The notes under the pieces: model-generated | The model's database searches: none | What the model saw: the letters and a program-made list of their open reading frames with translations, nothing else | Told to the model about the DNA's origin: nothing | Position numbers and translations under genes: made by a program | DNA from: a virus | Strand: one strand, 5' to 3' | Virus record (IMG/VR): IMGVR_UViG_3300042090_000199 | Location: 13,745 to 77,744 of that record | DNA: 64,000 nt | Shown here: positions 4,672-57,442 of the stretch, in pieces | Layout of the letters: every line of letters starts with the position of its first letter | Position numbering within the stretch: the stretch's first letter is position 1

Positions 4672-4830
4672 ATGAACTGTCGAACTTGTGGGGCGGAACT
4701 AATTCCAGGCACAGTCTCCGAAGGCGGTAACTGGACTAAAGATCGTCAGCAGAGCCAAGCCTACGAGTGCACGCCCTGTAACGCTCCTCAGAATTGTAAC
4801 TGTGTAAGTCTGTACGGAGTATTGTTGTGA
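4672..4830 (+). CDS. Small Zn-ribbon-like protein (not in ORF track)
   Basis: MNCRTCG...ECTPC; its stop overlaps the helicase GTG (GTGA). Confidence 0.5.
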   Translation: MNCRTCGAELIPGTVSEGGNWTKDRQQSQAYECTPCNAPQNCNCVSLYGVLL

Positions 4831-10909: not shown

Positions 10910-11155
10910 ATGGCTGTTCATCATAACAGGCTAGTTCCGTCTTCTCCAGAGCCTCCAGCTCCGATCCGAGGTGGCACGTTCTTCTACTGCCCTTGGGGTG
11001 AGAGGAGAAAAAGCGACTGGGGCTCAATTTCGTTTCTAGCCTGCGGCATCGTCCACGCTGGATGGGCAACCGGCACGAGATTCCGAACATGCAAGGCTTA
11101 CCGGCAGCACTGGCGAAGGTATCACTCGGAGGTGCAGCATGACGATGTCCGTTAA
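10910..11155 (+). CDS. Hypothetical protein
   Basis: ORF from ATG 10910; Cys/His residues. Confidence 0.45.
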   Translation: MAVHHNRLVPSSPEPPAPIRGGTFFYCPWGERRKSDWGSISFLACGIVHAGWATGTRFRTCKAYRQHWRRYHSEVQHDDVR

Positions 11156-11369
11156 GACAATGGAGTTCGACACAATCATCGTCATCTACGACTACACGAG
11201 CCAGACCTTGACTATCAAGTCAAAGTCTGCTCCAGAGACTAAACCAGCTACTAGGCACAATCTTCAACCCGAAGGCGAGATCAAGCTGCCTAGCTTCAGT
11301 ATTCAGGAGCTGCGAGAAGGTCTCGAAGGCATCGGTCAGCAAGTCCCATCAGGTCGACGTTTATCTTAA
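11139..11369 (+). CDS. Hypothetical protein ending ...CGT TTA TCT TAA
   Basis: RBS GGAGG; contains one of three in-frame TTA codons found. Confidence 0.55.
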   Translation: MTMSVKTMEFDTIIVIYDYTSQTLTIKSKSAPETKPATRHNLQPEGEIKLPSFSIQELREGLEGIGQQVPSGRRLS

Positions 11370-18781: not shown

Positions 18782-21700
18782 GTGGTGGAACAATCAGGTG
18801 AACTAGTTCAGCCGAAAGCACGTCGTCATCCTCTAGCAGCCTGCGAGACTTGTCCGCTTAACACCTCTGAATACGGATTCGTTCCTAGCTCTGGACCTGA
18901 CCGAGCCAGGATCGCTCTAGTGGGTCAGAATCCTGGGCGAGCAGAGATTAGGCTAGGCAGACCATTCATTGGACCAAGTGGCAAACTCCTAGACAAGGTT
19001 CTGCAAGCCTACCGTCTGAGGCGAGATGAGATGTTCATTACGAACGCTTGTCTCTGCACGTCTAAGGACAACCCAAGCTTCACGCCTCCTCCGGGAGCGG
19101 TAACTGCTTGTCGACAAAGACTGCTAACCGAGCTTAGGCAGCACGGCGTCGAACAGATCGTGGCCCTGGGGAACACTGCAGCACAGTCGTTGCTGAGAAC
19201 TAAGATCGGTATTACTCAGCTACGCGTAGGACCGTTCCGTGAGACAGACGACCTGCCAGATGTCAAGATCATTCCGACCTTTCATCCTGCTGCATGCGTC
19301 GATCCGGCTACGAAAATTCTCAAGGCAGACCTTTCATGGATACCTGCCTCTGATATCCAAGTAGGAGACGAACTAATAGGCTTCGACGAGAACAAGCCTC
19401 GCGAACCATACTCCCGGAGAGAATGGAAGCCTACTGCAGTCACGGAAGCTTACAATATAGTGACTTCTAGATACAGGATTACCCTAGAGAATGGAGATAC
19501 TCTCACTTGTAGTTCGGATCATCTATGGCTCGCCTGGGATCCTAGTGACAGGTCAATGCATTGGATGGTTCCAGAGCGTCTAAAGAAACGACTAGGTCGA
19601 GCAACTCTACAACTGTTCATGAAGCCTTGGGAACTAGCTGAAGGATCATCAGCAGGCTATATAGCAGGGTTCCTTGATGGTGAGGGAACTATCCATCCTC
19701 AAGATGGTCTACAGTGGGGTCAGAACAACGGAGCCGTAGCAGACCATATAGTCCGACTGTTCAAGGAATACGAATTCGATATTCGCGTCAGCAAGGGATG
19801 GTCGGGAACTCACAAATATACAGGCAATAAGGAGTCAGGAGAATGCAGACATTATCACACGCGTGGACGTAGAGAGGGGTTGCGAGCAGTCGGAATGTTT
19901 CGACCCGTTCGTCTCCTACCTAAGGCTCGCAAGATATGGGAAGGATGGGGTGTCAGAGCTGATAAGGTACTAGTAACAAACGTCGAGAAGATCGAAGACG
20001 GTGTAGTTCGTGTCATAAACACAACTGAGCGAACCTATATAGCAGACGGCTACATGTCTCATAACTGCCTACGTGCTCCTGCTGCTTTCCCTTCGATGTG
20101 CAACGACTTCCAGAAGCTTGTAGTCGCTGCTCCTCCCTGGAAGAAGCCTAAGGTAGTCGTCATTGATACTGAAAAGGGAGCGCTCCGTGCAATAGCCATT
20201 TTGCGACGGAAGTACAATAAAGCCGTAGTTGACATTGAAACCGACCTAGATAAGGAAAAGTCGTTCGACCACCCGAGCAGGTTCGCACTGCTCTGCATAG
20301 GCATATGTGTACAGAAAGGTGTAGGCATTGTATTCGGAGAACGAGCCTGTAGATCTGAAGCAGTCCTCAAATCGATGGCCGATTGGCTGCGAGGTATTGA
20401 ACTCATATTTCAGAACGGGAAATTCGACGTCAGTGGCTTGTATCCTAAGGGATTCACCGACCTTGTCATCGGACAAGACACCATGCTCAAATCCTACGTG
20501 CTGGATGAACGCTCGGGTATCCACGGACTGAAGTACAACGCCGTCGAGAAACTAGGTGCTCCCCGTTATGACGAAGATCTCGACCAATACACCGGAAAAG
20601 GGAAGAACAAGCGCTTCGGTAATATCCCAAGGTCTATCCTATACGAATACAACGGCTACGATGTCGTTTGCACCTGGGAACTCGATGAGTTCTTCGATGC
20701 CGATATCGACCGAGAAGATGGTCTACGCCTTCCGCCTATACGCGATCGCGCTGACGGTGAATGGTGGGGACTCCGACATCTGCATGACTTTCTATGCGAG
20801 GCTGCCACAGGGTTCGTCTACCTAGAACTCAACGGGTTCGCTGTAGACCTGACTTATAATCGTCAGCTGCAAAGAGAGTACGCAATCGAAGCTAAGGGCT
20901 ACGAGCGTACTATGTTCAGGATAGCAGGAGAGTTCAACCCGAAATCGCCTATGCAGGTCAAGGCTGTTCTTCACGATCTGGGTGTCAAGATACCCATGAA
21001 GAAGAACCTCAAAGGTGACATGGTTGAAACTACCGATGCCGAAGCATTGACCTTGATGTACGAAGCTGCCAAAGCGCGTAGAGACAGAACTAAGTCAGGG
21101 AGAACAGCTCAGGCTCCGGGTCGTGTAGTTCTACAAGGCACGATCGATCATGGCGGCTCGAACCAGATCGGTCCTGAAGTCGTAGAGGTAAGTACTGAAG
21201 ACAGCATCGTTACGTTTCTGGAGACGATGCTTAAGTACCGTAAGGTGGCTAAACTAGATGGTACGTATGTCACAGGACTCCGGAAATACGTTTACCGCGG
21301 TAGGGTTTATCCCACCGTAATGCTTCATAGTACTAGTACCGGAAGACTATCCCAAAAGAAGCCCTCGCTCCAGGTCATTCCTCGGGGTGATAAGCTGCGT
21401 AGACAGTACAAGGTCGCTAAGGATGATCACGTCCTTGTTGGTGCGGACTACGGTCAGCTTGAACTCCGAGTTCTAACCTGGCTAGCCCAGGAGCCATATT
21501 TTGCAGAAATCTTCCGTGATCCTTCTCGAGACCTGTTTGACGAACTACTTCCTATCGTTAGACCTGAACGATCATACAGACTAGCATCGGCTTCAGCTAA
21601 GGACAAGCGTATCATCGTTAAGGCCTTCGTATACGGTCTAGCGTACGGTCGTGAAGCCAAGTCCATTTCGGACGAACTAGATATTCCGCTTCGCGACGCA

Positions 21701-22216
21701 CAAGCCATGTATCGTGACTTCTTCGTGGTCATTCCCCGAATCGTAGCCTTTCGCGAGAAGATCAAGTGGGCTGCCACGCACGGCGAAGATCTGATTACGC
21801 CTTTTGGTCGACGTCGTCGATTCAACCTCGTTACGGACGAGAACCTCAAGGACGTCCAGAACGAAGCCATGGCTTTCCTTCCGCAGTCTACAGGGTCTGA
21901 TATCTGCGTTCAGGCCTTCATTAACCTGCGTAAGGAACTCAAGGGTGTCGCTTGGTGTCGTAATACCATCCATGACGCTCTGTACTTTGAGACGCATCAG
22001 GGCAACGTCGAATACGTAGGCAACCTAATGCGCCAGCGCATGGCAGAGTCCGCATACAGGATCTGCGGCGACTACGTACCATTCATAGTCGACGTAGAAG
22101 TAGGTCGCAACTGGGGCGACATGAATCATCTCGAAGAATGGCTCAAGGGAGAACGTCCCTATCCGTGTGCAGTCGAACTCTGGAAGCCTCCTATGTTTCA
22201 GGAATACGCAGCATGA
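18782..22216 (+). CDS. polA: DNA polymerase A with N-terminal uracil-DNA-glycosylase-like domain and intein
   Basis: UDG4 motifs (CxxC, GQNPG, GRPFIGPSG, HPAA); exonuclease DIET/QNGKFD/YNGYD; TGRLS, DYGQLELR, KAFVYGLAYG, HDAL. Confidence 0.93.
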   Translation: MVEQSGELVQPKARRHPLAACETCPLNTSEYGFVPSSGPDRARIALVGQNPGRAEIRLGRPFIGPSGKLLDKVLQAYRLRRDEMFITNACLCTSKDNPSFTPPPGAVTACRQRLLTELRQHGVEQIVALGNTAAQSLLRTKIGITQLRVGPFRETDDLPDVKIIPTFHPAACVDPATKILKADLSWIPASDIQVGDELIGFDENKPREPYSRREWKPTAVTEAYNIVTSRYRITLENGDTLTCSSDHLWLAWDPSDRSMHWMVPERLKKRLGRATLQLFMKPWELAEGSSAGYIAGFLDGEGTIHPQDGLQWGQNNGAVADHIVRLFKEYEFDIRVSKGWSGTHKYTGNKESGECRHYHTRGRREGLRAVGMFRPVRLLPKARKIWEGWGVRADKVLVTNVEKIEDGVVRVINTTERTYIADGYMSHNCLRAPAAFPSMCNDFQKLVVAAPPWKKPKVVVIDTEKGALRAIAILRRKYNKAVVDIETDLDKEKSFDHPSRFALLCIGICVQKGVGIVFGERACRSEAVLKSMADWLRGIELIFQNGKFDVSGLYPKGFTDLVIGQDTMLKSYVLDERSGIHGLKYNAVEKLGAPRYDEDLDQYTGKGKNKRFGNIPRSILYEYNGYDVVCTWELDEFFDADIDREDGLRLPPIRDRADGEWWGLRHLHDFLCEAATGFVYLELNGFAVDLTYNRQLQREYAIEAKGYERTMFRIAGEFNPKSPMQVKAVLHDLGVKIPMKKNLKGDMVETTDAEALTLMYEAAKARRDRTKSGRTAQAPGRVVLQGTIDHGGSNQIGPEVVEVSTEDSIVTFLETMLKYRKVAKLDGTYVTGLRKYVYRGRVYPTVMLHSTSTGRLSQKKPSLQVIPRGDKLRRQYKVAKDDHVLVGADYGQLELRVLTWLAQEPYFAEIFRDPSRDLFDELLPIVRPERSYRLASASAKDKRIIVKAFVYGLAYGREAKSISDELDIPLRDAQAMYRDFFVVIPRIVAFREKIKWAATHGEDLITPFGRRRRFNLVTDENLKDVQNEAMAFLPQSTGSDICVQAFINLRKELKGVAWCRNTIHDALYFETHQGNVEYVGNLMRQRMAESAYRICGDYVPFIVDVEVGRNWGDMNHLEEWLKGERPYPCAVELWKPPMFQEYAA
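19295..20065 (+). mobile_element. Intein (257 aa) with a LAGLIDADG motif
   Basis: Starts CVDPATKIL, ends YIADGYMSHN followed by C; contains YIAGFLDGEG. Confidence 0.9.
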
Positions 22217-25400: not shown

Positions 25401-25820
25401 CTATTCCTTCCTTTGTACCGCCTGAGCCTTGTCATCAATAATTTGCTGTGCGACATGCAGGCGATCTGCAATCTCCTGCTCCAATCGCGAGACCTTTACC
25501 TCCGCTCCTGCCATCGCTGCATACGTTTCAGGGCTAGTAACTATACCGTTCTCCTTTTGTATCGCAACTAGCTCCTGAATCTTGAGCAGGAGCGCTTTAG
25601 TCGCACTTAGATCCGACTCGATTGATGCTGTCAGAGTAGAGTTCACTAGCGAGTGAATGAGATCCAGCTTGCTATTAGTGTCCGCACCCTGCTTACGGAT
25701 ACCTGTGACTTGTCTGAAGCCTATGATTGCTGCTAGGAGCAAGAGGACTGCTGTTACGATACTGGCTATGGAAGTGACTATGCCGGCATCAGATGAAGCT
25801 GCCACTGAAATGCTAATCAC
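25401..25820 (-). CDS. Membrane protein (lysis cassette)
   Basis: N-terminal TM, IH.LVNS motif, coiled coil. Confidence 0.6.
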   Translation of the reverse strand: MISISVAASSDAGIVTSIASIVTAVLLLLAAIIGFRQVTGIRKQGADTNSKLDLIHSLVNSTLTASIESDLSATKALLLKIQELVAIQKENGIVTSPETYAAMAGAEVKVSRLEQEIADRLHVAQQIIDDKAQAVQRKE

Positions 25821-26287
25821 TAACCATTACTCCTAGTCTGCAGTTGAGTTACCTGCGCTCGTAGCTCCTGAACTTCATCTAGGATAGCCTTAAGACCTCC
25901 TTCAGTATGTATATCCGTCCGATCGATAAGCACTTCAGTATCCTCGAAGGTCTTAGCAGCCCGCGCGTCGGATGCCTTCGACTGGCCATCCTGACCGACC
26001 ATAATGATGGACAGCAGGACTAGCTGCAGGAAGAATGACGCCGTCCACTGGACCATGCCATACAGTCCGCCCTGGATAGCCTGCGGCAGCGCGAGTAGGT
26101 CTAGAGCCGCGAAGACATAGGCACACCACATCGTGCCTACACCCTTAGTAATCTTCAAGGCTAGCCAGGCGTTGACCTTAGCGTACCAGGGCGCATCACT
26201 AGCAGCCCGCAGATGATCATGACCATGTAGATGTACTGCTAGGCCATGCTTCGTGTGCCCGAAGTGCGGCTTGTGGTCGTCCGCCAT
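25820..26287 (-). CDS. DUF1003-like membrane protein
   Basis: ITKGVGTMW...FLQLVLLSIIMVGQ. Confidence 0.65.
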   Translation of the reverse strand: MADDHKPHFGHTKHGLAVHLHGHDHLRAASDAPWYAKVNAWLALKITKGVGTMWCAYVFAALDLLALPQAIQGGLYGMVQWTASFFLQLVLLSIIMVGQDGQSKASDARAAKTFEDTEVLIDRTDIHTEGGLKAILDEVQELRAQVTQLQTRSNG

Positions 26288-30532: not shown

Positions 30533-31438
30533 CTAGATCCATGCCGCCTGATAAGCTGCGACTAGTTGCCCGCCAGCTGCACCTGCTATTGAAGAAACGA
30601 TAACCGTATTAAATCCTGGATTGATAGTAAACCAACTTGAGCTCACATCTGCAGGTACGTAGACGCCGTTCAAGAAAGACTGCTTAGCATCGAAGTCGAT
30701 AACCATGCGGTCACCGGTCTGCAATGTGACTAGCTGATTCCACCAAGTAACAGTCTGTCCGGTCTGAACCAGCGTGATTGCAGGCCCCTTGAGCGGCCCC
30801 CAGATCGTCATCTCTGGAAACGATGGAAAGTTCCCAGGATCCATAAACTGAATCGATCCCGGGACTACACCATTGTTCAGTGTGAAAGGAACGGTCACTG
30901 GTATCGTGATCGGGGACGCTGCGGAGGAACTAGCCGATCCAGAAGCGTAAATCGTTTGGGAGTACTTCCGCGGGTCTGGCGCGACCAGCAGAATTGAGAA
31001 CACGACTTCACACAGATTGTCGTACTGCTCAGTAATCTTGCCAGAACGCCTAACGTACGCAACCTTCGGAATCGGCTCATTGTAGTTAAACGCGCATAGG
31101 TCGTTAACCGGAATAACCTGTCCCAAGATCGACCTAGCAAGGTCCCGCGTAGCCTGGTCTGGAGCCGACGCGCGTAGCGTCAGCGTCATCATGCGAGGTC
31201 CGAAGAACTGCGCTGCTGGATACGCGCCGTGATCAGCAGCTTTCTGGATGACCTGACCGACGACGTCTGGCCCGTCCCAGCCCTCCAGCTTCTCGATGAT
31301 CCATGCAATACCGTTCGTATCTGGGCCCGCACCCATATTGAGTACCATTGGCGTAGTCATGTACGGCGCCTGATACGAGAACGACCCTGTCCAGAGACCT
31401 GTGTCCTGCGATATCGTGCCCGAGCCAGTATAAGTCAT
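30533..31438 (-). CDS. Distal tail protein (Dit-like)
   Basis: Follows tape measure; LEGW, APDPRKY, PG.N, AWI end. Confidence 0.75.
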   Translation of the reverse strand: MTYTGSGTISQDTGLWTGSFSYQAPYMTTPMVLNMGAGPDTNGIAWIIEKLEGWDGPDVVGQVIQKAADHGAYPAAQFFGPRMMTLTLRASAPDQATRDLARSILGQVIPVNDLCAFNYNEPIPKVAYVRRSGKITEQYDNLCEVVFSILLVAPDPRKYSQTIYASGSASSSAASPITIPVTVPFTLNNGVVPGSIQFMDPGNFPSFPEMTIWGPLKGPAITLVQTGQTVTWWNQLVTLQTGDRMVIDFDAKQSFLNGVYVPADVSSSWFTINPGFNTVIVSSIAGAAGGQLVAAYQAAWI

Positions 31439-34400
31439 GGGGCCACCGCCAATGCCAACGCCATGTCGCGCATCTGCTGCGCCTTCATCTCCGTAGTCGG
31501 GTACTGCGTACCGAAGTACTGGAAGTATTGATGAACTGGCTGCTTACTACCCTGAGCTGTCGGCCTGATATCAACCCCGCCGCCCGGACGTGCGCTAGCA
31601 ATCTCGGTCCCCGACTCGCCTACGTAGCCCCACCGTCCCGGAGGAAGGAAGCCGCCTGCAGCATATCCATGTCCCGAGCCGATACCTGCGCCACTAGCGT
31701 TCTGCAGTGTAGGTCCATAGACATGTGCAGCATAATTAAGCGCAGCTGCAACGTTCGCCAACGGGTCATAGATGTTCATGCTCGTACCCGGAACATGGTA
31801 CGCCAAAAACGTCGCCATGATCGTCTGCATCAGTCCGCGTGAAGGGTCACCCTCCTGTGCATTAATGTCCGTCAGGTTGATCGCGTTCGGATTACCTCCG
31901 GACTCAGTCTGCATCTGGAACAGTACCTTGTTCTCCAATGCTGATGCCAAATGCAGCATAGCCAAAGCCTGCAGAACAATAGGTGCCCACTGTGTAACAC
32001 CTGAGCCAAGATTCATGGTCGCCGCAGCTGCGGCCACCTTCGCCGCCATGTCCGCAATCATCTTCTGGGCTGAGCTACCCTCTGTACTCTGGCCAGCCTG
32101 GGTCATAGCAGTACCCATGAAGTCCTGTCCCACACCTGACAGAACACCGTAAGGCCCGACTAGGCCGCCAGTCGCAAATCCTGGCAGCTTACCCTTCAAG
32201 TGGTCAACGCTACCTGACGCCACCATGTCTGCCGGAACGACTAGTTCCCCAGGCATCAACACGCCGAGCACACTGTCCCTGCCTGGCGTACCGCCCTTGA
32301 TGAGACCGCCCGCGGCGTGAAACTCGAGGTATCCAGTAGCTGCATTCTTGATGTTCTGCTCTGCAAACGTGATCGTGCCTGTGCCGGAACCGACAACTGT
32401 AATCGGCAGGTTCTTGCCGTGCATGCTGTTGATCTCATTCTGCAACCCTGGCAGGTACGTCTTCCACAGGTCATCTGCTTGAGTTTTCGTCAGACCTAGA
32501 CCCTGCTCCGCATAATTCTCGAATGCCCGCTGCGCTGCTGGCAGATTATTGTTCGCCTGAATCGTCAGCTGGGTCATAACGTCGATCGCAGCTTGACGGA
32601 AGTCCTTATTACTCGTCGTGCCCTTTTCGATGTCCGTCGTGAAGGTGTTCCAGGCCTGCTGTCCACCTTGCGCCTGCCAAATAGCTACAGCCTGCATGCT
32701 CTTTAGGGACGCATTCAGCGCATCAGTAAGTCCTCCAGCCTTGACTGTTGACTGTCCGATAATCCCATTCATATTGGACAGCGATGTTGCATTCGTCCCA
32801 ACCCATTGGTTCAAGGTCTTAAGTGAGACCGTACCAGGACCTAGGGCGTTGTTAATCAGGTCGACCATCGTAGAACGAGCCGCAGTATTGCTGCCAGCAT
32901 ACTGCAGCATCTGCTCCGTCATCGTAGCGGTAACCTTAGTCAGGTCCCCTTGCGAAATACTCTGTGACATGAGCGCGCTGACCACGTTCTGAGCTGCACT
33001 AATCTGTCCGTAGAAAGCTTGGTTCAGTGTATAGCTCGCCTGCGACGTGCCAGCTATGGCGGCACCTGCCGTGGACACGCTAGATTTCAATCCATCGAAC
33101 GTATGGCTAGTCGATCCCGTCGCCTGCTCTGCGGCGCTCAAGTTAGTCGTCATCGATGCCATGTTCAGCTCAAAGGTATCGAATGTAGACTGGCCTCCCG
33201 TGATCACATTCATCAAGTCGGTTTCCGCACCGGTAATCTTCTTGATCGCAGGGACCGTTTCCTGCATATACAGGTTCGTCAACGCATTCTGAGCAGCCGC
33301 GGCCTGCCCACCCTGATATCCAGCTAGCTGCTCGGTAGCTGTTGTCAAAGCCTTAATCTGTGTGACCTGATTCGCGAACGCAGCGGCGCTCTCAGTGGCG
33401 ATCGCGCCAGCCTTAACGCCCATCGCGTTCAGGTCGGACAACGAGGCGGTCTGACTACCAGTAATCTGGTCCAGTGTAGCCATCCGCGAAGTCAAAGTTT
33501 GCTGCTGATCACCGAACGCCTTAACATTCGACGTTAGGCCTTGCCATGCAGGGTTCAGCTCCGTCACTGTCGACGTAAGTCCATGCATCCCCGAAGTCGT
33601 TACCTTGATATATTCAGGCGTTTGAGACAGCTGATCATTGGTCTGCTTAATACCTTGTGCCAAGATAGTCTGAGCCTGTACAAACGTAGTCGCCGCATTA
33701 AGCTGCTGCTCCACAGAATTGTAAGCGTCCTGCGCAGCTGTCTTAACACTACTTAGCCATACACCTAGCGCGACGAGCGCGCCTATCGCGACAGCTGCCC
33801 AGACAAAGGGATTAACGGCTCCCAACGCAGCCATGATGCCCTCTAGCGCAGCGCTAGCCGCGGCTGCTATACCCTCCGCACCGGCCACAGCTATCAGCGA
33901 CGACACATACAGTGCGACAGCCCCAGCGGCATTCATGGCCCAGCCGCCTACGGCTAGCAGCGGCCCTTGCAAGGACATAATCGCAGTCACTGCGAGCCCG
34001 CCCCACAGGACTGCACCGTGGAACCACAAACCGATGTTCAAGAGTCCTTGCACAATCGAGTTGCCAGTAATAGCCTCGAGCGCCCCAGTTACGTCCTGTA
34101 GAGCTCCGAACAACATCTGTGCATAGCCTGGCAACGTGTGCAGGATATTACCGAAGATACCAAATACGTTCCCGATGATATTACCGAGTGTTTGTAGGTC
34201 CTGAACTCCCTTACCGACGAGCCCGTCTAGCCCATTGCCTCCGAGGGCGTTCTCTATACGCGCCCCAAGATTATCCATGACGCGGCCTGCACCGGTAGCC
34301 AATGTAGTGAACACACTAGCGTGGTTGTTAATAATACCCAAGGCCTCGCCAAACAGTACATAGACCTGAGGCTTCACTGAGTCAGTGAAGTTCTGCAGGC

Positions 34401-35106
34401 TACTAGTCACGCCTGGAAAGGTAGTACCCAGAGCTGTCGTGATCGTGAGGAACGCTTGCTCCGAGTGTACGATGTCGTTAACCGTCGAGCTGGCAGCTAT
34501 CCCGAACGCCGTCAAGGCAATCAGTGCCGGAACAACTTCGGCAGTGACTTCCAGGATGGCGTCCAGTAGTAGGTGCCATACCGCGACAGAGTTAACAAAC
34601 GGCACACCGCTAAGTAGACCGCCGAACAGTGGAATCTTTGCGCCAAGTGCTGTTAGTGCTCCGCCAAACCCGAGAGCTGCACCAGTTAGGCCCCAGAAAC
34701 CTGTGCCGCCTCCGCCTGTCGTACCCGGAGTCCCAGTAGCTGCATCAGCCGCTACTCTAATCGCGGTCAGGTCTGCCAGCGCAGCGCTAACCCCAGACAC
34801 CTTCAAGTCGATACCGGTTAGTGTCTGAAGTCCTGCTAGCTTCGCCCGAATTTCAGCTATCGAAGCATCCAGCTCGGTTTGATTGATCCCACCGATCGAC
34901 AGCGCCTTAACCTGCAGCGCCATGAGCTTAGTTGAGATCTCCAGAAGCGCTGCGTCGACCGCCTTCTGATCAATACCCGCCTTAATTGACAAGTCTTTAA
35001 CCGCGGCTAGCTTCGCCTCAATCGAAGCAATGCCTTTATCCAACGCAGCGGCGTCTACGTCGACTTCAAGGTATCCCTGCCCTACCTTGAACCCTCCTGC
35101 GGCCAT
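31435..35106 (-). CDS. Tape measure protein with C-terminal lytic transglycosylase (SLT) domain
   Basis: 1223 aa, Ala/Gly-rich; ESGGNPNAIN..D.N...G.PSRGLMQ.I..TF; GYAAGG. Confidence 0.92.
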   Translation of the reverse strand: MAAGGFKVGQGYLEVDVDAAALDKGIASIEAKLAAVKDLSIKAGIDQKAVDAALLEISTKLMALQVKALSIGGINQTELDASIAEIRAKLAGLQTLTGIDLKVSGVSAALADLTAIRVAADAATGTPGTTGGGGTGFWGLTGAALGFGGALTALGAKIPLFGGLLSGVPFVNSVAVWHLLLDAILEVTAEVVPALIALTAFGIAASSTVNDIVHSEQAFLTITTALGTTFPGVTSSLQNFTDSVKPQVYVLFGEALGIINNHASVFTTLATGAGRVMDNLGARIENALGGNGLDGLVGKGVQDLQTLGNIIGNVFGIFGNILHTLPGYAQMLFGALQDVTGALEAITGNSIVQGLLNIGLWFHGAVLWGGLAVTAIMSLQGPLLAVGGWAMNAAGAVALYVSSLIAVAGAEGIAAAASAALEGIMAALGAVNPFVWAAVAIGALVALGVWLSSVKTAAQDAYNSVEQQLNAATTFVQAQTILAQGIKQTNDQLSQTPEYIKVTTSGMHGLTSTVTELNPAWQGLTSNVKAFGDQQQTLTSRMATLDQITGSQTASLSDLNAMGVKAGAIATESAAAFANQVTQIKALTTATEQLAGYQGGQAAAAQNALTNLYMQETVPAIKKITGAETDLMNVITGGQSTFDTFELNMASMTTNLSAAEQATGSTSHTFDGLKSSVSTAGAAIAGTSQASYTLNQAFYGQISAAQNVVSALMSQSISQGDLTKVTATMTEQMLQYAGSNTAARSTMVDLINNALGPGTVSLKTLNQWVGTNATSLSNMNGIIGQSTVKAGGLTDALNASLKSMQAVAIWQAQGGQQAWNTFTTDIEKGTTSNKDFRQAAIDVMTQLTIQANNNLPAAQRAFENYAEQGLGLTKTQADDLWKTYLPGLQNEINSMHGKNLPITVVGSGTGTITFAEQNIKNAATGYLEFHAAGGLIKGGTPGRDSVLGVLMPGELVVPADMVASGSVDHLKGKLPGFATGGLVGPYGVLSGVGQDFMGTAMTQAGQSTEGSSAQKMIADMAAKVAAAAATMNLGSGVTQWAPIVLQALAMLHLASALENKVLFQMQTESGGNPNAINLTDINAQEGDPSRGLMQTIMATFLAYHVPGTSMNIYDPLANVAAALNYAAHVYGPTLQNASGAGIGSGHGYAAGGFLPPGRWGYVGESGTEIASARPGGGVDIRPTAQGSKQPVHQYFQYFGTQYPTTEMKAQQMRDMALALAVAP

Positions 35107-37205: not shown

Positions 37206-37237
37206 GGTTCCTCCTCCCGAAACCAGTCCGCCATATC

Positions 37238-37735
37238 TTACTGAACCACAAGTCCTACTTCACGCCAAGAAAACGCCATGTCCATCGAGTATGCTGCCCA
37301 GTTACGCGCGTCGCTATATATTCTCCTCGCTTCCGTATGAACCTCTGCATGTATAACACATGCAGGCGCGTAAGCCTTTCCCCCGAAATCAATCGTCAGA
37401 GCACGTCCGAAGACACCTGGGAGCTTACTCATTGAAGCAAGCCAGATCTGCTGCAGCAGGTTGTTAGCTGCGTACCAAGGTGGCTTATTCGATCCAGGCT
37501 TAGTCGCGTAAGCCTTAACCTCAATTAGAGGCTGTGCAATCGGCATACCTACCATAGGAGTTCCTCCTACAGCGGTTACCGTAATAAAGTTAGAGATCCC
37601 GTCTAGGTTCAGAGGCCACTGCTGTTCAGCAGGAGGCTGAGTAGACACCATACCAGGATTGAAGACACCAAACTGACCCGGAATACTGCCGATCCAGGCC
37701 ATAGCAACCAGTTCGCTATTGGGGTGAAGAGCCAT
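37238..37735 (-). CDS. Tail terminator-like protein
   Basis: Position; start ATG in TTATG after AGAGGGG. Confidence 0.65.
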   Translation of the reverse strand: MALHPNSELVAMAWIGSIPGQFGVFNPGMVSTQPPAEQQWPLNLDGISNFITVTAVGGTPMVGMPIAQPLIEVKAYATKPGSNKPPWYAANNLLQQIWLASMSKLPGVFGRALTIDFGGKAYAPACVIHAEVHTEARRIYSDARNWAAYSMDMAFSWREVGLVVQ

Positions 37736-38169
37736 AAGCCACCCCTCTTTCTCCGCTGTTGCGAAGCACGGAGCTGGATCCACTGATCGAGAGTAGTCGG
37801 ACGACCAAAGTGTTGAATACCAGGAGCTACCAACGGAGTAGTGCCCTCAGGGTCCTCTGGCGTCCTATACTTGTACAACGCAGGTCTCAAGAACGGCTCT
37901 TCAGGAACTATTTCAGGACCGACAGTATGAGTAAAGCGATGGAAGACACGGTGACCGAATTCTACATCCAACGTGTAAGCAGCCGTAGAGTAGATAATCA
38001 GTGTCAGGTTGTCTACGTAGTACTCAATTCCCGCTGCGAGTGCCCCCGTACGCTTAGGTGCATATCGTATCGCGTCTGCTGTGATCAAAGGCCCAAGAGT
38101 CACGTCGAGAAATTCTTCGACGTCAGCCTCTATATGCCCGATCGCATCGGGATCGATATAAACACGCAC
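37609..38169 (-). CDS. HK97 gp10-like neck protein
   Basis: AP.RTGAL...I, VEFG, PFLRPAL; may effectively end at TTA 37737. Confidence 0.75.
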   Translation of the reverse strand: MRVYIDPDAIGHIEADVEEFLDVTLGPLITADAIRYAPKRTGALAAGIEYYVDNLTLIIYSTAAYTLDVEFGHRVFHRFTHTVGPEIVPEEPFLRPALYKYRTPEDPEGTTPLVAPGIQHFGRPTTLDQWIQLRASQQRRKRGGLWLFTPIANWLLWPGSAVFRVSLVSSILVWCLLSLLLNSSGL

Positions 38170-38248
38170 TCGCCACGTCCCTCTACGTCAGTGGCACGAC
38201 AAAGTTCCTAGGCGTCTACCGCCCTGCAGATTTCGTCGCTCTATTCTA

Positions 38249-38278
38249 ATAATAACACACAACACACTAGGAAAGCTA
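38249..38278 (-). promoter_or_regulatory. Internal promoter for the tail genes
   Basis: Minus strand TAGCTT-N18-TATTAT with TG extension, in an AT-rich gap. Confidence 0.5.
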
Positions 38279-38315
38279 GGGTAAGTCACTAAAATACTTA
38301 ACGATACTAGTAAAA

Positions 38316-38648
38316 TTACAATTCCCTCCAGGTGTTCCCTTCATCGAGATAGCCATGCCAGTAGAAAGGCGAACTACCGCAGCCTATTGATGCACGGATC
38401 TCAAGAGAGCCATCTATGCACTCACGAAACGTCCAAGGAGGTTCGTACACACCATGGAGCCCGCTATGCTCATCAGGACGATCGAACTTGTCGACACCCT
38501 TATGTGTTGGGAGCAGAAACCATACGACACGATCTTCATGGCCTCCACTTATGATCGGATGCGGGCCAGTATAGTCACCGGCCCGCTCCAGATCATCAAG
38601 CGTCGGGACTCTACGAGCTGGAGTCAGGTTCACGGATCCGGTATCCAT
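38316..38648 (-). CDS. DUF6527-like small protein
   Basis: WTF....SL....SI......WHGYL..G.W. Confidence 0.5.
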   Translation of the reverse strand: MDTGSVNLTPARRVPTLDDLERAGDYTGPHPIISGGHEDRVVWFLLPTHKGVDKFDRPDEHSGLHGVYEPPWTFRECIDGSLEIRASIGCGSSPFYWHGYLDEGNTWREL

Positions 38649-38794
38649 CTCGCCTGAAACCAGGGTTCTTTGGATCAGGGCAGTGCCCATCCATATGGTG
38701 TAGAGTAGCTCCTTCCAGGCTTTCGTACCACGGAAGTATGAACCAGTCGAAGAACCAGTCGACTAGGAGAACGAACTTGCTCTTGTTATACATG

Positions 38795-39643
38795 TCACAC
38801 GATCATCTGCTTGTAGTCGACGTAGTTCCCGAGTAGGCCCAGAGTGGACGCATGAATCAGATAATCGCCGTCTAGACCGAAGCTCGGGCTCCAGGAGTTC
38901 CGGACCTTGATGATCGTCTTCTGCAGGTCGATAGCACCGGTAGCCTTGGCCTGTGCCAGCTGGACGATACCTCGCTCGCAGGTTTCGTGACCGCCTGCCA
39001 CACCTGACTCGATTGCCGCTTGAAGAGCGTCTACCGAACCGTCGCCATCGACGAAGCCATCTGAGTCGGGCTGCATCCAGGACTTGAACCATGGAGCGCC
39101 CTGAATGACCGTACCTGTCTGGAGAGCGAGCAGCGCTCCCTGAACATTGTGCGGAACGTTGTAGTCCTTGACAAGCCCGCTAGCTACCGCGAACTCGCAG
39201 CAGTACGACCCTGTCGAACCGCAGTCTGCAGGAGGCCACTCCTGAGACTGGTCTTGAGTCTGATCGGTATCCAGGTGGTAGAACACGATAGCCCACTGCT
39301 CGTTAGCTGCGGGCGAGTTAGGCGACATACGCCAGATCTTGCCACCGAAACCGATCTCGAGCGACTCGAGATCCTTGCCTGCTGTAACCGACAGCTGAGC
39401 GATATGCGCCGTCGAAGCATTCGCAGTACAGGACCCAAGCGCGTCTACCGTAGGCGCTCCAGGAACCAAAGTCGACGTATCGATCGACTGTGCGAGTAGG
39501 TCCTCCTGGTCAAGAACCGGAATCGGGATATCCCAGTTGACTTCCTTGAGAGACTCCGTCGAGTGAAACAGAGCTCTCGGGAGCAGATGCTTCTCATCGA
39601 TGCTGTACTGACCGAACTTGGTCCGTGTCGCGCCTGCGTACAT
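38795..39643 (-). CDS. Papain-like cysteine peptidase (C1-type)
   Basis: DQ...GSCTANA, GGHE, RNSWS.SFG..G; likely start ATG 39643. Confidence 0.8.
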   Translation of the reverse strand: MYAGATRTKFGQYSIDEKHLLPRALFHSTESLKEVNWDIPIPVLDQEDLLAQSIDTSTLVPGAPTVDALGSCTANASTAHIAQLSVTAGKDLESLEIGFGGKIWRMSPNSPAANEQWAIVFYHLDTDQTQDQSQEWPPADCGSTGSYCCEFAVASGLVKDYNVPHNVQGALLALQTGTVIQGAPWFKSWMQPDSDGFVDGDGSVDALQAAIESGVAGGHETCERGIVQLAQAKATGAIDLQKTIIKVRNSWSPSFGLDGDYLIHASTLGLLGNYVDYKQMIV

Positions 39644-40083
39644 AAGGAGATCATGCCTTTCACGAATTCGTAAGCTGCCCAGTCTGACGCGCTGACGAGG
39701 TGAACTCCACCATGTCCGCGATGATGCCATACGCACAGCAACGTCAGGTTCTGGTCGGAATCGATCCATGCGCCGATTCCCTCTTGTGAAACACCTGGAT
39801 AGAACTGTTCCAGGAGCTTGATATCGACGCCATTCTGGAGCGCGAACTCGATAACTGAGTGATGCGCTTCCAGAGGCTTCGTGAGATCGCACTCAGAGAA
39901 GTCAGGACGATACCTCTTAGCGAAGTCGCAGTCGTACGTACCTGCAGCTCTTCGTCGCCGCTTCCACTCCTCGAAATCGACGTGGTGAGGATCGTTTGCT
40001 CGAGGCTCGTGGGCTGGATAATGGACGGTGTAGTTATGGGCGACTGTCTGTACATGAGCAGGCACCTCCTGTGGAGTAGTCAC
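39445..40083 (-). CDS. His-rich HNH-like protein
   Basis: LEAHH..IE, NL..LC..HHRG..GVH; may effectively end at TTA 39645. Confidence 0.6.
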   Translation of the reverse strand: MTTPQEVPAHVQTVAHNYTVHYPAHEPRANDPHHVDFEEWKRRRRAAGTYDCDFAKRYRPDFSECDLTKPLEAHHSVIEFALQNGVDIKLLEQFYPGVSQEGIGAWIDSDQNLTLLCVWHHRGHGGVHLVSASDWAAYEFVKGMISLCTQARHGPSSVSTASMRSICSRELCFTRRSLSRKSTGISRFRFLTRRTYSHSRSIRRLWFLERLR

Positions 40084-40098
40084 AGGTGGAGTCCTTTA

Positions 40099-47092: not shown

Positions 47093-48619
47093 TCACACTT
47101 CCTCGCTAGTTCCCGGCTCACCGGTATCAGACTCCGTAGAGAAGCCCTGACCGGTATTAGCCGTCCTAAACTCGATCGTGACTCCCCACGTGTCGAGCTG
47201 CTCAGGTGTGTATCCCTGCTCCTCCAAGAGTTGCCGCGGAGGCACCCCGAGCTGTTCCTTTATTGCCTGTCCCTGCAAGGTATTCAGGTCGTTGACAGTA
47301 GCTGCCGGAACCCAGTGGATAGTTACATCCGCAGGAATCGCTTGGCCACGAATCTTCAACACGAACCTGAAAATGTCTCGCCAAGTCGCACCAAACGACA
47401 TCTGACGATTGCGCACCTTCTTCGCGAAAGGCGCTTCTAGTACCCTGAGGGACTCTCCCGACACATTTGACACGATTGGATCGAGGAAATGCATCGGAGT
47501 CTGTGAGATAACCGCCATCGCATGCACGTACTGCATGAACGGGTTAAGAAATGCCGTTGGGTCGCCTACAGGGAACTGTCCATAAGACGTGATGCCCTTC
47601 ATGAACCAGACCGAAGCAGGATCAGCCGTTAGTTGCGACTTCGGGTCCATGCCCTGATCAAGCGTAGCGCCTGAGTCGATCGAGAACGCGAACTCGCCCT
47701 CGTCTCCCATAGCCGCTTCGGACGTGTCGTACGCGGGGTCCATGATCGCGTATCGCTGCGGAAACGCATTGTAGTCGACCGAGGCCATGTGGCTGACGAC
47801 TAGCTTGTGGATCGCATCCTGCGGCCCATAAGCATTGACATGCTCTGGTACTCCGTAAGGGTACTCATTACGGAAGTGGAAAACAGGAACTTCGCCGAAT
47901 GGGTTGACAACAGGCCACTCACCGTTGTCGCTGCTGTCTAGACGCTTCTCCCACTTAGGCTTTTCACCTGACTGTGGCAGAGGCGCCAGCATGTACTTCT
48001 CAACGCGATCCGGGTAGTACAGGTTAGCAAACGTAAAACCACTGTTCGGGTCCTGCCACCGCTTGATCGCATAACGCTTACGGTTCTCGTTCTCGTCGTC
48101 GTAGAACACCCGCATGACACGAGGCGACTGATAAAAGATGTCTACCGATAGCTGGTTGCCTTCGGAATCCGTCTGACTATCAACATTCGGCCAGACGAAC
48201 ATATAAGCGTCACCGAGCTTGCAGGCCTTCTTCATCACGTCTGGTGCGTGGAGGTCTAGCTGGTTGTCCTTCCAAGCCTGCCGAATAATGCCAACAGCAG
48301 CTTCGTCATCGGAAAAGATCGATGCTACTTCGAGACGTTCAGCAACAGCATCTACAGGCAGCTTAGCGAAGTTGAAGTTGAACACAACACCGGTCGCACC
48401 CATCGCAATGCGCAGGCGTAGCGAGGCGAAGAACTCTGGCATAGACCCGTTGTAGTACTGGATAGCCTTCACGAAGTCTGGCTGGGCTTCGTCAAGACTC
48501 AAGATCCCGTTGCGTAGATCGGCACCCGGGTCATCGTAAGGCTCAGGAGCCGGACGAGGTATCGCCATGCCGAGGAACGTATTGCCTGGCATCATCTGAC
48601 CATGCATGATATCAGTCAT
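47093..48619 (-). CDS. Portal protein (SPP1 gp6-like)
   Basis: YY.G, NF....VD...RL, GDAY..VW, NPFG.VPV.HF, FPQRY, SGESLR, GY. Confidence 0.9.
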   Translation of the reverse strand: MTDIMHGQMMPGNTFLGMAIPRPAPEPYDDPGADLRNGILSLDEAQPDFVKAIQYYNGSMPEFFASLRLRIAMGATGVVFNFNFAKLPVDAVAERLEVASIFSDDEAAVGIIRQAWKDNQLDLHAPDVMKKACKLGDAYMFVWPNVDSQTDSEGNQLSVDIFYQSPRVMRVFYDDENENRKRYAIKRWQDPNSGFTFANLYYPDRVEKYMLAPLPQSGEKPKWEKRLDSSDNGEWPVVNPFGEVPVFHFRNEYPYGVPEHVNAYGPQDAIHKLVVSHMASVDYNAFPQRYAIMDPAYDTSEAAMGDEGEFAFSIDSGATLDQGMDPKSQLTADPASVWFMKGITSYGQFPVGDPTAFLNPFMQYVHAMAVISQTPMHFLDPIVSNVSGESLRVLEAPFAKKVRNRQMSFGATWRDIFRFVLKIRGQAIPADVTIHWVPAATVNDLNTLQGQAIKEQLGVPPRQLLEEQGYTPEQLDTWGVTIEFRTANTGQGFSTESDTGEPGTSEEV

Positions 48620-48638: not shown

Positions 48639-49031
48639 TCAGTAAACCGCCGGCAATTGAAATAGTGCTACAACTAGTCCAGTATTCGAGCTAAAGTCAA
48701 TCTGGATCGTCTTCGTGCCCGACTGCTGTACAATTGAATGAAACGCAGCGATGACGCCAATTGCGCTCGTCGGCAGGACAATCGGATACGTTGTGGGGCT
48801 CAGGCCGGGCAAACCTTGCATACCAACCTGTACAGTCGCAGTACAAGCAGTTGCGCCAAGGCTAACTCCGAACTGGATCAGACCCGCAACGTTATTGAAC
48901 TGCACTCCGTTACCCGCGCCTGCGCTCGGCACTACCGCATTAGGGTTACCGCCGGTAGTCAGCAACGTAGTCAGGTTCGAGATCGCATTGTCTCCGGACA
49001 GGAGCGTCGGTGTCAGCGTCACCCTAGTCAT
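48639..49031 (-). CDS. Virion structural protein (paralog of 36574..36957)
   Basis: Shared motifs; located between terminase and portal. Confidence 0.55.
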   Translation of the reverse strand: MTRVTLTPTLLSGDNAISNLTTLLTTGGNPNAVVPSAGAGNGVQFNNVAGLIQFGVSLGATACTATVQVGMQGLPGLSPTTYPIVLPTSAIGVIAAFHSIVQQSGTKTIQIDFSSNTGLVVALFQLPAVY

Positions 49032-50739
49032 CGCTGCTCACCCCTACAGGTGTCCTACGGCCGTAGCTGTAAGTTCCGCCTTTAAGGATCTTAGGAACAG
49101 TTATGAAGTGCCTAACGCCTATCTCGACAGCGTCCAGGATGTCCTTGTCTTCGCTACCGTCATAAGAACACTGATTCTGTTCCAGCCTAGGCAGCCGCAT
49201 CGAGTGAGTTACTCGACCACGCTGATACAGATTCAGAAGTCGTACCTGACGGACAGACTTCTTGAGACCGCTCCAGGAAAGCTTCATCCTGACAGGCATG
49301 TGGTGAAACACCATAGTCCAGGTGTCACCACCCTGGTTCGACTCTACGACAACTTCGCCGATTTCAGGCCACTGCTCGAGATACCACATGACAGTGTCAC
49401 GCAGCTGCTTCGGAGGTAGCTTCACGATAGTTGCGAACTTGACTACAACCTTTGGCTGCAGCATGTTGCCTTGAAGGCTGGGCGGGAGAGGAAAGTCATC
49501 AAGAGACAATCCAGCTCTAGGGTGCCAGAGGCCTATAATCGCGATACCAGTATCGTGAGAGTTCTCGTGCGACGTAACCGCAGGGTCAATCGCCAGCGCT
49601 GTTCGAACACAAGGCAAGTCGGCGTAAACGTAGTCGTCTTCAGACCAGTATGTACCGTTCGCCGAGACAGGCTGGTTCTTGAACTCCTTCTTGTACTCAC
49701 GCGTGTGCTCATGCTTCTTGAGGTACTCCAACGACCACTTGCCGGGCCAACAAGAGCGCTCAGTACCGTCGTCGTTCAGGAGAATAGGTTCGTAGTAATG
49801 AACCTGAATGTTCTGATCATCGATCCAGGGATCTTCGACCGTTTCAGGGTGCAGCTCCGATTCAACCATCTGGTGCATGATCGATCCAGGAGCTGTTACA
49901 GTCCCGACGATAATGACGCGTGCGAATTCGTTCAGGTGAAAAACAGTCTCAAGCATCCACCTAAGGCGCTGACGCATTAGCGTCGGGCTGTACTTTTCCT
50001 CACCAGGTTCGATGTCATCGAGCACGATCAGGTCAGGGCGCTGCTTACCAACCTTCAGACCTCGTGCAGCCGTGCCAGATCCCTTAGCCATCATGACGAA
50101 GCCGTTACGCTGCTCGATCATGTCAACTCGGCTCGCGACTAGCTTCTTACCGACTGGCCCACCCTGACGACGCACCTTAGGTTCACACAGGTCTGGGAAG
50201 TCCTGAATAAGAAGGTCGTTCATGTCGAACTCGCCACGAATCGTAGCAAGGTGGTTCTTAGCCTGATCAGCTGAGTCAGAGAACGCAACAATGAACTTAA
50301 CATGACCGTGCGCAGCGGCCCACATGGGCAGAATCTGAAACAGCCAGGTACTCTTACCGACACCGCGAGGAGCTACATACGCATCTCGATGCTCTCGAGG
50401 CACACGCGACTTCTCTAGCCAGGACTTAGCGTGCTCCAGCAGATCAAGATGAAATTCGGCAAAGGAAAGCTTGTCAGACGTCTCGATCGAGTACAAATGA
50501 TGAGACAAGTACGTTAGGGCAAACAACAGCGGGTCGTTCTTGGACAGCTGAGCACGCGCATGACAGTCATTGCCTGAAAGAACTTCTCTGTTCAGGGTCC
50601 GAAGATAGTCCTGAAACCACTGCGGACCCTGAGGACGATCTATCAGCTTGAGCAGGAAGTCTGGATACCAAAGATCCACCGGTTCGCCGTCTGAGGCAAA
50701 TCCCGGATCGTTATCGAAGAAGTATCCAGAACGTTCCAT
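49024..50739 (-). CDS. Terminase large subunit
   Basis: APRGVGKST, RG...RPDLIVLDD, GT, AIDPA, ESNQGG, D..DA. Confidence 0.93.
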   Translation of the reverse strand: MERSGYFFDNDPGFASDGEPVDLWYPDFLLKLIDRPQGPQWFQDYLRTLNREVLSGNDCHARAQLSKNDPLLFALTYLSHHLYSIETSDKLSFAEFHLDLLEHAKSWLEKSRVPREHRDAYVAPRGVGKSTWLFQILPMWAAAHGHVKFIVAFSDSADQAKNHLATIRGEFDMNDLLIQDFPDLCEPKVRRQGGPVGKKLVASRVDMIEQRNGFVMMAKGSGTAARGLKVGKQRPDLIVLDDIEPGEEKYSPTLMRQRLRWMLETVFHLNEFARVIIVGTVTAPGSIMHQMVESELHPETVEDPWIDDQNIQVHYYEPILLNDDGTERSCWPGKWSLEYLKKHEHTREYKKEFKNQPVSANGTYWSEDDYVYADLPCVRTALAIDPAVTSHENSHDTGIAIIGLWHPRAGLSLDDFPLPPSLQGNMLQPKVVVKFATIVKLPPKQLRDTVMWYLEQWPEIGEVVVESNQGGDTWTMVFHHMPVRMKLSWSGLKKSVRQVRLLNLYQRGRVTHSMRLPRLEQNQCSYDGSEDKDILDAVEIGVRHFITVPKILKGGTYSYGRRTPVGVSSDD

Positions 50740-56884: not shown

Positions 56885-57442
56885 ATGAGTGTCATCGATA
56901 GAATCTTCGACAGCATTATTCACCGGCGATCAAAACGCACGGGAACAATCCGACTGGCAGCCGTCGGCGCTGTACTCGCAGCATCAGCTGTAACTTACCA
57001 CTACACCGTCCAGTCAGGAGACACACTGTCAAGTGTCGCACAGAAGACGTGCGGGAACTCAGGCAGCTGGTCTTCCATCTACAGCCAGAACCAAGCAGTC
57101 ATCGGAAGTAGCCCAAACCTGATCCTCCCAGGTCAGCATCTGACGTTCAAGTGCAGCAAAGCAACCGCCACGGCTGTACTGACTATAGAGCTGACGCACC
57201 CGATAACGCCTAGCAACGCCATGCAGGCATGTATTATCGCGCGCGAGTCTGGCGGCAACGCTCAGGTGATGAACTCGACAGGCCACTACGGTCTATACCA
57301 GTTCAGCGAATCCACCTGGATCGCCGCCGGAGGCAGCCAAGCCCTCTTCGGGAACGCTTCCGCCTCCTACCAGACCTCGATCTTCTGGGCTGCGGTCAAG
57401 CTCTGGGGCTACACTCCGTGGACCCCTTATGACGGCTGCTAA
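56885..57442 (+). CDS. Secreted LysM plus Rpf-like transglycosylase
   Basis: YTVQSGDTLS..A...W..IY..N..VIG..PNLI.PGQ.L; CI..RESGGN...YGLYQF...TW...GG...A....Q...G..PW..C. Confidence 0.88.
   Translation: MSVIDRIFDSIIHRRSKRTGTIRLAAVGAVLAASAVTYHYTVQSGDTLSSVAQKTCGNSGSWSSIYSQNQAVIGSSPNLILPGQHLTFKCSKATATAVLTIELTHPITPSNAMQACIIARESGGNAQVMNSTGHYGLYQFSESTWIAAGGSQALFGNASASYQTSIFWAAVKLWGYTPWTPYDGC

Follow-up and report, generated by a model that had tools for sequence, protein, structure and literature searches.

The 64,000-nucleotide stretch of DNA analysed here (the window) comprises bases 13745-77744 of the IMG/VR virus record IMGVR_UViG_3300042090_000199, which is 77,744 bp long, is classed as linear, is estimated to be 83% complete and has a G+C content of ~ 54%. 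It comes from a tailed phage that encodes PolA, an SNF2 helicase, terminase, portal and tape measure proteins, a LysM-Rpf transglycosylase and NlpC/P60, and the subject of this report is the leucine codon TTA, which a few of its genes carry where a stop codon would be expected. UUA ends translation in this phage, and we consider it fairly probable that it does so as a genuine stop codon, read by the release factor 2 (RF2) of the host.

The two clearest cases are junctions on the minus strand. At junction 1, the neck1/tail-completion gene (37735..38169, PHROG 5) runs for 144 sense codons to ...QQRRKRGG and is followed by TTA at 37737..37735, in the context GGC TTA TGG, where the A of the terminator is also the first letter of the ATG (37735..37733) of the next gene (37238..37735). 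The latter was called a tail terminator in the earlier note and gave no family match here, but its ATG reading frame of 165 codons has a high coding score, the N-terminus of the protein is conserved among relatives (MALHPNSELVAMAW), and the ATG is preceded by a GAGGGG ribosome-binding site. At junction 2, the HNH endonuclease gene (39643..40083, PHROG 8048) has 146 sense codons, then TTA at 39645..39643 in the context TCC TTA TGT, and the ATG (39643..39641) of the peptidase gene (38795..39643, PHROG 16701) overlaps this TTA in the same way; the peptidase start, MY.G.T.TKFG, is invariant in 8 orthologs. Both junctions are therefore stop-start overlaps of the form TTATG, with the terminator A shared with the downstream ATG. 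Reading TTA as Leu would create overlaps of 127 nt at junction 1 and 199 nt at junction 2, as the earlier note had worked out from these same codons, and would add apparent tails of 42 codons (37609..37734) to the neck protein and, under table 11, of 66 codons (39445..39642) to the HNH protein. The neck tail, which is not a real C-terminus, is an out-of-frame reading of the downstream gene; the read-through peptide is GGLWLFTPIANW and the predicted extension ...KRGG-L-WLFTPIANW, and it is hydrophobic and junk-like. It is 42 aa long here and 9 aa in a sister phage from a different metagenome (G001, 87% identity), and is absent from all homologs. The HNH tail is equally not conserved, being R/S-rich junk of 66 aa here, 3 aa in G001 and 19 aa in the more distant relative G002, and the coding score of the HNH frame drops from + 0.15 bits per codon ahead of the TTA to − 0.48 beyond it.

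A check of the reads, which had been suggested earlier, returned the same letters without variants in two independent wetland DNA runs (X3 and X4). Contigs from RNA libraries match too, X7 spanning junction 1 and X6 spanning junction 2 at 6-8 nt from the contig end, and both junction TTATG sequences are present in the sister phage. The identity of the letters in independent DNA runs and RNA-library contigs makes assembly error and RNA editing very unlikely; with sister phages of other metagenomes showing the same letters and no point found in its favour, an artefact, be it a sequencing or assembly error or an editing of UUA to UAA, can be given next to no weight. The contigs X6 and X7 come from two wetland metatranscriptome libraries and cover parts of the neck/HNH region (window 37200-40100) with identical sequence; the phage may be transcribed in situ, DNA carry-over being the alternative. 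Two recoding events at the junctions were considered and rejected. UUA-triggered bypassing of the Hau3 terminase type, in which the UUA precedes a short non-coding gap within a single essential ORF and coding then resumes, does not fit, in that the next gene starts in the − 1 frame after each junction TTA and the upstream protein is complete compared to its homologs. For a frameshift on GGC-UUA-UGG there is no slippery re-pairing, and the + 1 frame runs into a stop after 6 codons at junction 1, which is not the case at junction 2.

Within gene bodies, TTA is missing to the same degree as the canonical stops. The 84 confident genes of the 77.7-kb phage contain no TTA in 11,405 interior codons (the first 20 and last 70 codons of each gene were excluded), against 78.8 expected from position-specific base frequencies, and this zero is identical to that of TAA, TAG and TGA, while the lowest sense codon after TTA is CCC at 0.25 of expectation. 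The trinucleotide itself occurs 117 and 46 times in the two other frames versus once in frame, in an N-terminal over-extension of the peptidase open reading frame (ORF); as TTA is common out of frame and nearly absent in frame, its depletion reflects frame-specific selection and not a DNA-level bias. CTA, ATA and AGA are used freely at this G+C content. The hand scan in the earlier note, which had found PolA (18782..22216), the tape measure (31435..35106), the SNF2 helicase (4827..6317), the terminase (49024..50739) and the portal (47093..48619) to be free of in-frame TTA, was borne out, as was the free use of CTA, CTT and TTG, which number 469, 300 and 229 in a crude ORF set where TTA makes up 22 of 2,023 Leu codons. 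The majority of these 22 belong to questionable ORFs or to N-termini extended too far, and the other in-frame TTAs of the window fall into ORFs of low confidence or precede the start that is probably the true one. Five sister or related genomes show the same depletion, with 0-5 interior TTAs per 3,700-11,100 codons and one exception in the variable fibre gene of G001, which is discussed below. The cultured Streptomyces phage KimJongPhill, with 64% G+C and 1 internal TTA in 14,568 codons, is uninformative in this respect, because every NNA codon is rare at such a G+C content.

About 5 to 8 of the ~ 140 phage genes end in TTA, mostly as the TTATG stop-start overlap. The third TTA recorded in the earlier note, at 11361-11363, was also found as described: it stands two codons ahead of the TAA (TTA TCT TAA) of a small plus-strand gene (11139..11369). 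The arrangement is identical in G001, but since no orthologs other than that of G001 were found, this gene is uninformative on its own.

What the codon means at gene ends was best seen by comparison with related phages. Nine IMG/VR relatives were retrieved, and five whole records were compared with the phage, giving a set of six genomes. Aligning homologs of the two upstream genes, a further suggestion of the earlier note, showed that orthologs end with TAA, TGA or TAG at the position of the TTA. The neck protein has 48 homologs of 110-170 aa, of which P0006 ends ...KRGG exactly at the TTA position, and junction 1 reads GGC TAA TG, GGC TGA TG or TAT TGA TG in relatives and GGC TTA TG in G001. 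At junction 2, the same codon is TAA in G004 (TCG TAA TG, ...GLIS-TAA), TAG in L007 (TCG TAG TG, ...GLIS-TAG) and TTA in G001 and G002. A metagenome scan based on the peptidase yielded 66 loci, mostly from relatives of 68% G+C with another gene order (no HNH gene before the peptidase), and added only two cases of junction 2 (L039 and L101), both with TAA. In at least six gene families (neck, HNH, G001:26564, G002:25051, the G004 tape measure and the G005 adaptor), TTA aligns exactly with an ortholog TAA, TGA or TAG and the sequence beyond is not conserved; in the G005 adaptor gene, reading TTA as sense would produce an in-frame fusion with the neck gene.

The same holds when all gene ends are taken together. 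The six genomes contain 32 in-frame TTAs past codon 20 of confident genes, and the median distance from these to the next canonical stop is 11.5 codons, versus 100-150 for CTA, GTA, ATA and TTG. TG directly follows TTA in 16 of the 32 cases, compared to 2.3-5.0% for 13 other NNA codons. In 685 comparisons of C-termini, the last aligned residue was directly followed by a canonical stop in 623 and by TTA in 8, with 27 other sense codons together accounting for 54; TTA thus supplies 8 of the 62 non-stop codons at ortholog stop positions, yet only ~ 0.05% of in-frame codons. Junctions of the xxATG type with long tails involve 7 of the ~ 32 in-frame TTAs but only 17 of ~ 15,400 occurrences of all other NNA codons, and counted over the six genomes there are 10 stop-start junctions with TTATG, 16 with TAATG and 17 with TGATG. 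Where TTA occurs near an annotated start, it lies upstream of the conserved start in every checkable case. At the start of the G001 SNF2 helicase (L013, record around 58700; window 4827), which reads ATG GGA GAT GAC GTC TTA GTG, a 5-codon mini-ORF ends in TTA directly before a GTG that is aligned with the start codon of G003, and TTA followed by GTG was also seen twice in the bacterial genome G007 introduced below.

These comparisons bear directly on the simplest alternative, in which TTA is an ordinary rare Leu codon and the cases at gene ends are tolerated losses of the stop codon (TAA or TGA to TTA), the extended proteins being harmless. TTA is one substitution away from both TAA and TGA, and not all tails are long, two of those in G001 being 3 and 9 aa. 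But were TTA readable, it would turn up among the 11,405 interior codons, where CTA and ATA are common, and it would not be over-represented among the non-stop codons at ortholog stop positions, and the same pattern recurs in host chromosomal genes, in one case across 15 species (see below). This explanation was already disfavoured, and we regard it as very improbable.

If UUA is a stop, the phage does not appear to supply the machinery. Searches of the phage revealed no tRNA, tmRNA or tRNA-Leu-like gene and no RF-1 domain, an Rfam search of it gave no family above the curated gathering thresholds, and the area near window 3150, checked for a tRNA-like or Rfam element, held none. A weak 81-nt ARAGORN prediction of a 'tRNA-Stop(tta)' in the relative G005 (L026:4411-4491; record c[64411,64491]) was rejected, as it would read UAA and not UUA; with a D stem of 3 bp and a mismatch in the anticodon stem, it is possibly a false positive. 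Because the phage has neither a release factor nor a tRNA-Leu of its own, candidate hosts were examined. Megablast and tblastn searches of the region against cultured phages found no near relatives (P0001 had no match, P0002 only distant Bacillus jumbo-phage HNH genes), and the nearest cultured terminases are those of Streptomyces phages, at about 42% identity. When the neck protein was compared to 185,579 species genomes, 9 of 9 genome matches were in Actinomycetota, and the best two were in the metagenome-assembled genomes (MAGs) G006 (Streptosporangiaceae) and G007 ('Actinomycetota bacterium bog_764'); on the G007 contig, the neck gene is 47% identical to that of the phage.

The SPF tripeptide is the universally conserved codon-reading motif of RF2, its 'tripeptide anticodon'. 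The RF2 of G007, ...HRMVRISKYDNQGRRQTSF, carries SKY in its place, while RF1 of the same MAG has the normal PVT. Among the 120 closest RF2 sequences in a collection of 5.8 billion proteins, several of them named as Streptosporangiaceae MAGs, 106 have SKY, 8 SQY, 3 SAY, 1 SRY and 1 SPF, such that S[KQAR]Y accounts for 118 of the 120. Nineteen of 30 GTDB relatives of G007 have SKY, SRY or SQY, at 78-100% RF2 identity, and the more distant ones mostly have SPF. The clade with the altered RF2 consists of at least 19 uncultured, high-GC actinobacterial species of soil and bog, some of which are labelled Streptosporangiaceae MAGs. A release-factor change in the predicted host, which the earlier note had proposed to look for, is therefore present in the candidate clade. 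Some of its assemblies have contigs of several megabases (e.g. G013 and G008), and these may represent cultured isolates. In a more distant relative, G026 (L209), RF2 has GPF in place of SPF; this Ser-to-Gly change would be of the kind linked to UUA as a stop in organelles if the SPF serine corresponds to Ser204. The unpublished genomes G026, G031 and G037 enter this analysis only through their RF2 motifs (SPF in G031 and G037, GPF in G026) and one outgroup row of the host-gene comparison, and none of the conclusions rests on them.

A second tie between phage and clade is the plus-strand gene for the LysM and Rpf-like transglycosylase (56885..57442, Pfam LysM and Transglycosylas), part of which (57236-57360) has 76-84% DNA identity to genes in each of the 20 G007 relatives in which the altered RF2 is known or presumed; in relatives with SPF the match is short or none. 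As a separate observation, part of the minus-strand gene 25820..26287 (window 25991-26153) has 68-74% DNA identity to sequences in G010, G022, G023, G014 and G011 of the SKY clade, and these matches may be prophage remnants or a shared gene.

Chromosomal genes of the candidate hosts, too, end in TTA. Of 10 in-frame TTAs preceded by coding-like sequence in 380 kb of G007, 9 are at end-like positions. Orthologs of four TTA-ended genes of G007 were compared, with a clear outcome for three. The MBL-fold gene has TTA right behind the C-terminal BLACT_WH domain in 6 species and a canonical stop at this place in G022 and G009, while in other species the stop comes 4-6 codons later. A conserved gene ends '...PGLRHARS-TTA' in 15 species of the SKY clade, with an unrelated tail in each, and a TPR protein has AGE-TTA in G025 versus AGE-stop in G018, G012 and G009. 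In a composition-window test, TTA was interior in 1 of 11 cases in G013 (controls 130/266), and in the SPF relative G034 in 5 of 15 (controls 100/198), a contrast in the same direction as the gene comparisons.

Genes for tRNA-Leu were searched for with a tRNA-Leu model of our own, followed by ARAGORN on the matched loci. No tRNA-Leu(UAA) was found in the contiguous SKY genomes G013, G008 and G021, which have 46-47 tRNAs each and, for Leu, only those with the anticodons CAA, CAG, GAG and UAG, nor was it found in five further SKY/SRY genomes, for which the cut-off was stricter and thus less sensitive. As positive controls, two SPF relatives (G034 and G033) did show the gene. The inventories of the MAGs G006 and G007 are too incomplete to be informative, as Leu-CAA is missing too. 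Within these limits of detection, the results are suggestive of an absence of tRNA-Leu(UAA) from the SKY clade; with no gene for it found there, UUA would have no cognate decoder.

Taken together, the most economical explanation is that the likely host clade has lost its UUA decoder, tRNA-Leu(UAA), and that the altered RF2, with S-K/R/Q-Y, has come to recognise UUA alongside UAA and UGA. UUA would then terminate in the phage because the host reads it as a stop, and the phage would have purged TTA from its gene bodies while using it occasionally as a terminator, mostly as TTATG in the manner of TAATG and TGATG. The earlier note had left open whether UUA is unassigned, a stop or a conditional signal for stalling or coupling. 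The shared core of these options, that UUA ends translation, is supported by the ortholog stops, the non-conserved tails and the reads, and a stop is the best supported of the three, given the altered RF2, the lack of a detectable tRNA-Leu(UAA) and the TTA-ended chromosomal genes in the candidate clade. We also lean, a little less firmly, towards the broader proposal that the clade (at least 19 species with the S(K/R/Q)Y RF2) and its phages use four stop codons, UAA, UAG, UGA and UUA, which, going by the literature searched, would be the first sense-to-stop reassignment in bacteria or their viruses and would be tied to the RF2 variant and the loss of tRNA-Leu(UAA).

Several observations weigh against this interpretation or qualify it. 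In the phage, TTA is the terminator of only about 4-7% of genes. The MAG with the other best neck-protein match, G006, has a normal SPF RF2. The RF2 change is not the organellar Ser204 substitution, and the reading of UUA by S-K-Y is deduced from sequence. The assignment of the clade as host is likewise indirect, and comparison of 40 kb of the phage with 31 genomes gave no convincing exact match of the kind left by a CRISPR spacer. The absence of the tRNA rests on a home-made model and ARAGORN over selected loci, and at the cut-offs used tRNA-Leu(UAA) was also not found in the SPF relatives G036, G028, G029, G032 and G035. In our sample, loss of the tRNA thus does not strictly go together with the RF2 change; if real in these relatives, the loss may be wider than the RF2 change and perhaps earlier. 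For the fourth host gene, a glycosyltransferase, orthologs end a few codons away and not at the same codon, an approximate match only, and the composition-window test is noisy, the normal-SPF G006 also having a few end-like TTAs in doubtful frames. The most direct counterexample is the tail-fibre-like gene of G001 (282 codons; L012:365-1213, record positions 20365-21213), which has an in-frame TTA at codon 116 through which the coding potential and the homologs (P0054-P0059) are continuous. This TTA marks the border where a conserved N-terminal domain gives way to a C-terminal one, in a non-conserved column with V, A or P in the homologs, and is followed by a conserved AQPG. A strict UUA stop would truncate the fibre protein, and so either there is some read-through, or the gene no longer works, or G001 infects another host. 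The earlier note would have counted in-frame TTA at conserved Leu positions inside core genes against a stop; something approaching this was seen, but only in the relative G001.

One alternative is that UUA is an unassigned, 'hungry' codon. With tRNA-Leu(UAA) missing or scarce, ribosomes would stall at UUA until rescue or drop-off frees the chain, TTA at gene ends would be tolerated or exploited since the protein is complete by then, and the change in RF2 would have little or nothing to do with it. The depletion and the end-position data fit this equally well, as does the failure to find the tRNA in SKY genomes and in some SPF relatives, and the internal TTA of the G001 fibre gene is easier to accept with some read-through. 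Mistranslation and ribosome rescue have been described as ways of resolving unassigned codons (PMC6207430). However, rescue of the tmRNA type adds a degradation tag, which is hard to square with a TTA that closes a virion neck gene and is kept at the close of one chromosomal gene across 15 species; stalling on UUAUG would leave the start of the next gene hidden under the ribosome; and the clade-wide change of the RF2 motif is left unexplained. We consider this explanation unlikely, though it is the strongest competitor to a genuine stop.

The other possibility is a conditional stop of the bldA type, where the host, like Streptomyces, has a scarce or developmentally regulated tRNA-Leu(UAA), the phage avoids TTA, and the junction TTAs act as sensors or coupling signals with a read-through that depends on the state of the host. 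There are precedents: phages of Streptomyces are reported to be usually free of UUA, bypassing at a UUA has been suggested for the phage Hau3, and a conserved UUA is present 5 nt before the adpA start (PMC10732093). Like the cases described here, bldA/UUA biology involves an actinobacterial setting, phages that purge TTA, and a UUA just before or at a downstream start, as in the adpA upstream ORF (PMC10732093; PMC4255298). The actinobacterial affinities of the phage and its TTA-free genes agree with this, and the G001 fibre TTA lies between two domains, as does the adpA UUA; no such tRNA turned up in the candidate hosts. In Streptomyces, UUA is read as Leu by a tRNA that is under regulation, RF2 is normal, and TTA is biased to gene starts and not ends (PMC10732093), whereas here TTA replaces orthologous stops, in the phage and in host genes alike. 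Moreover, the junction read-through products are non-conserved junk tails of variable length, there is no Hau3-like take-off and landing or gap architecture, and none of the bldA, Hau3 and adpA reports describes TTA in place of stop codons. The framing of UUA as a rare but readable actinomycete codon, which the earlier note had brought in, remains a reasonable background, but it is probably not the full story, and a conditional stop of this kind seems improbable to us. Because TTA is conserved at the ends of host genes together with the change of the RF2 motif, both this explanation and the hungry codon need extra assumptions that a genuine UUA stop does not.

The nearest parallels to a genuine UUA stop are in organelles. 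The mitochondrial code of the labyrinthulean Thraustochytrium is NCBI table 23. UUA is a stop in labyrinthulean mitochondria and peDinoflagellate plastids, with a Ser204 substitution in a bacterial-type RF2, and UUA/UUG are stops in the mitochondria of Marsupiomonadales, linked to changes in mtRF1a (PMC12574857). In these codes, as here, gene bodies lack the Leu codon, which is confined to places where orthologs stop. There is no cognate tRNA in them, and none was found here in the SKY genomes searched, and a class I release factor of bacterial type is altered in the region that binds the codon, here in the candidate host clade. Unlike in organelles, the setting here is a free-living bacterial clade and its phage, the RF2 of the candidate hosts retains the Ser and has S(K/R/Q)Y in place of SPF, and TTA ends only a few percent of genes. 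UUA as a stop has been published so far only for mitochondria and plastids, and our literature search found no report of a sense-to-stop reassignment in bacteria or their viruses. Stop-codon recoding, in which TAG or TGA is read as an amino acid (NCBI tables 4 and 25 and the 15-like phage codes), is similar in being a non-standard phage code that is tied to the translation machinery of host or phage and is detected by ORF structure and ortholog alignment, but it runs in the opposite direction to the sense-to-stop change proposed here, and this phage is without a tRNA or release factor of its own. Resistance of marine Synechococcus to phages reportedly also involves tRNA-Leu(UAA). Loss of host tRNA gene expression is described there as a barrier to infection (PMC11726456). 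In that case, the codon stays Leu and the phage fails, whereas here the phage would have adapted, with the codon removed and re-used as a stop.

So far, only organelles are known to have turned a sense codon into a stop. If true, a change of this kind in bacteria that live freely, and in the phages that infect them, would extend the routes by which the code can change, and the apparent order would be disappearance of the codon under high G+C, then loss of the tRNA, then capture by a release factor. It would also constitute a new specificity variant of the RF2 'tripeptide anticodon'. For annotation, the consequence is that standard pipelines read through TTA and generate false C-terminal tails, overlaps and fusions, such as the false overlaps at the two junctions of this phage, and for host prediction, a phage of 54% G+C with zero TTA points to hosts that use this code.

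Elsewhere in the genome (window about 1-23700 and L104), the phage also has QueC, GTP cyclohydrolase I (FolE), a QueD-like 6-pyruvoyl-tetrahydropterin synthase and a radical-SAM enzyme, which is the gene set of 7-deazaguanine (preQ0-type) DNA modification pathways.

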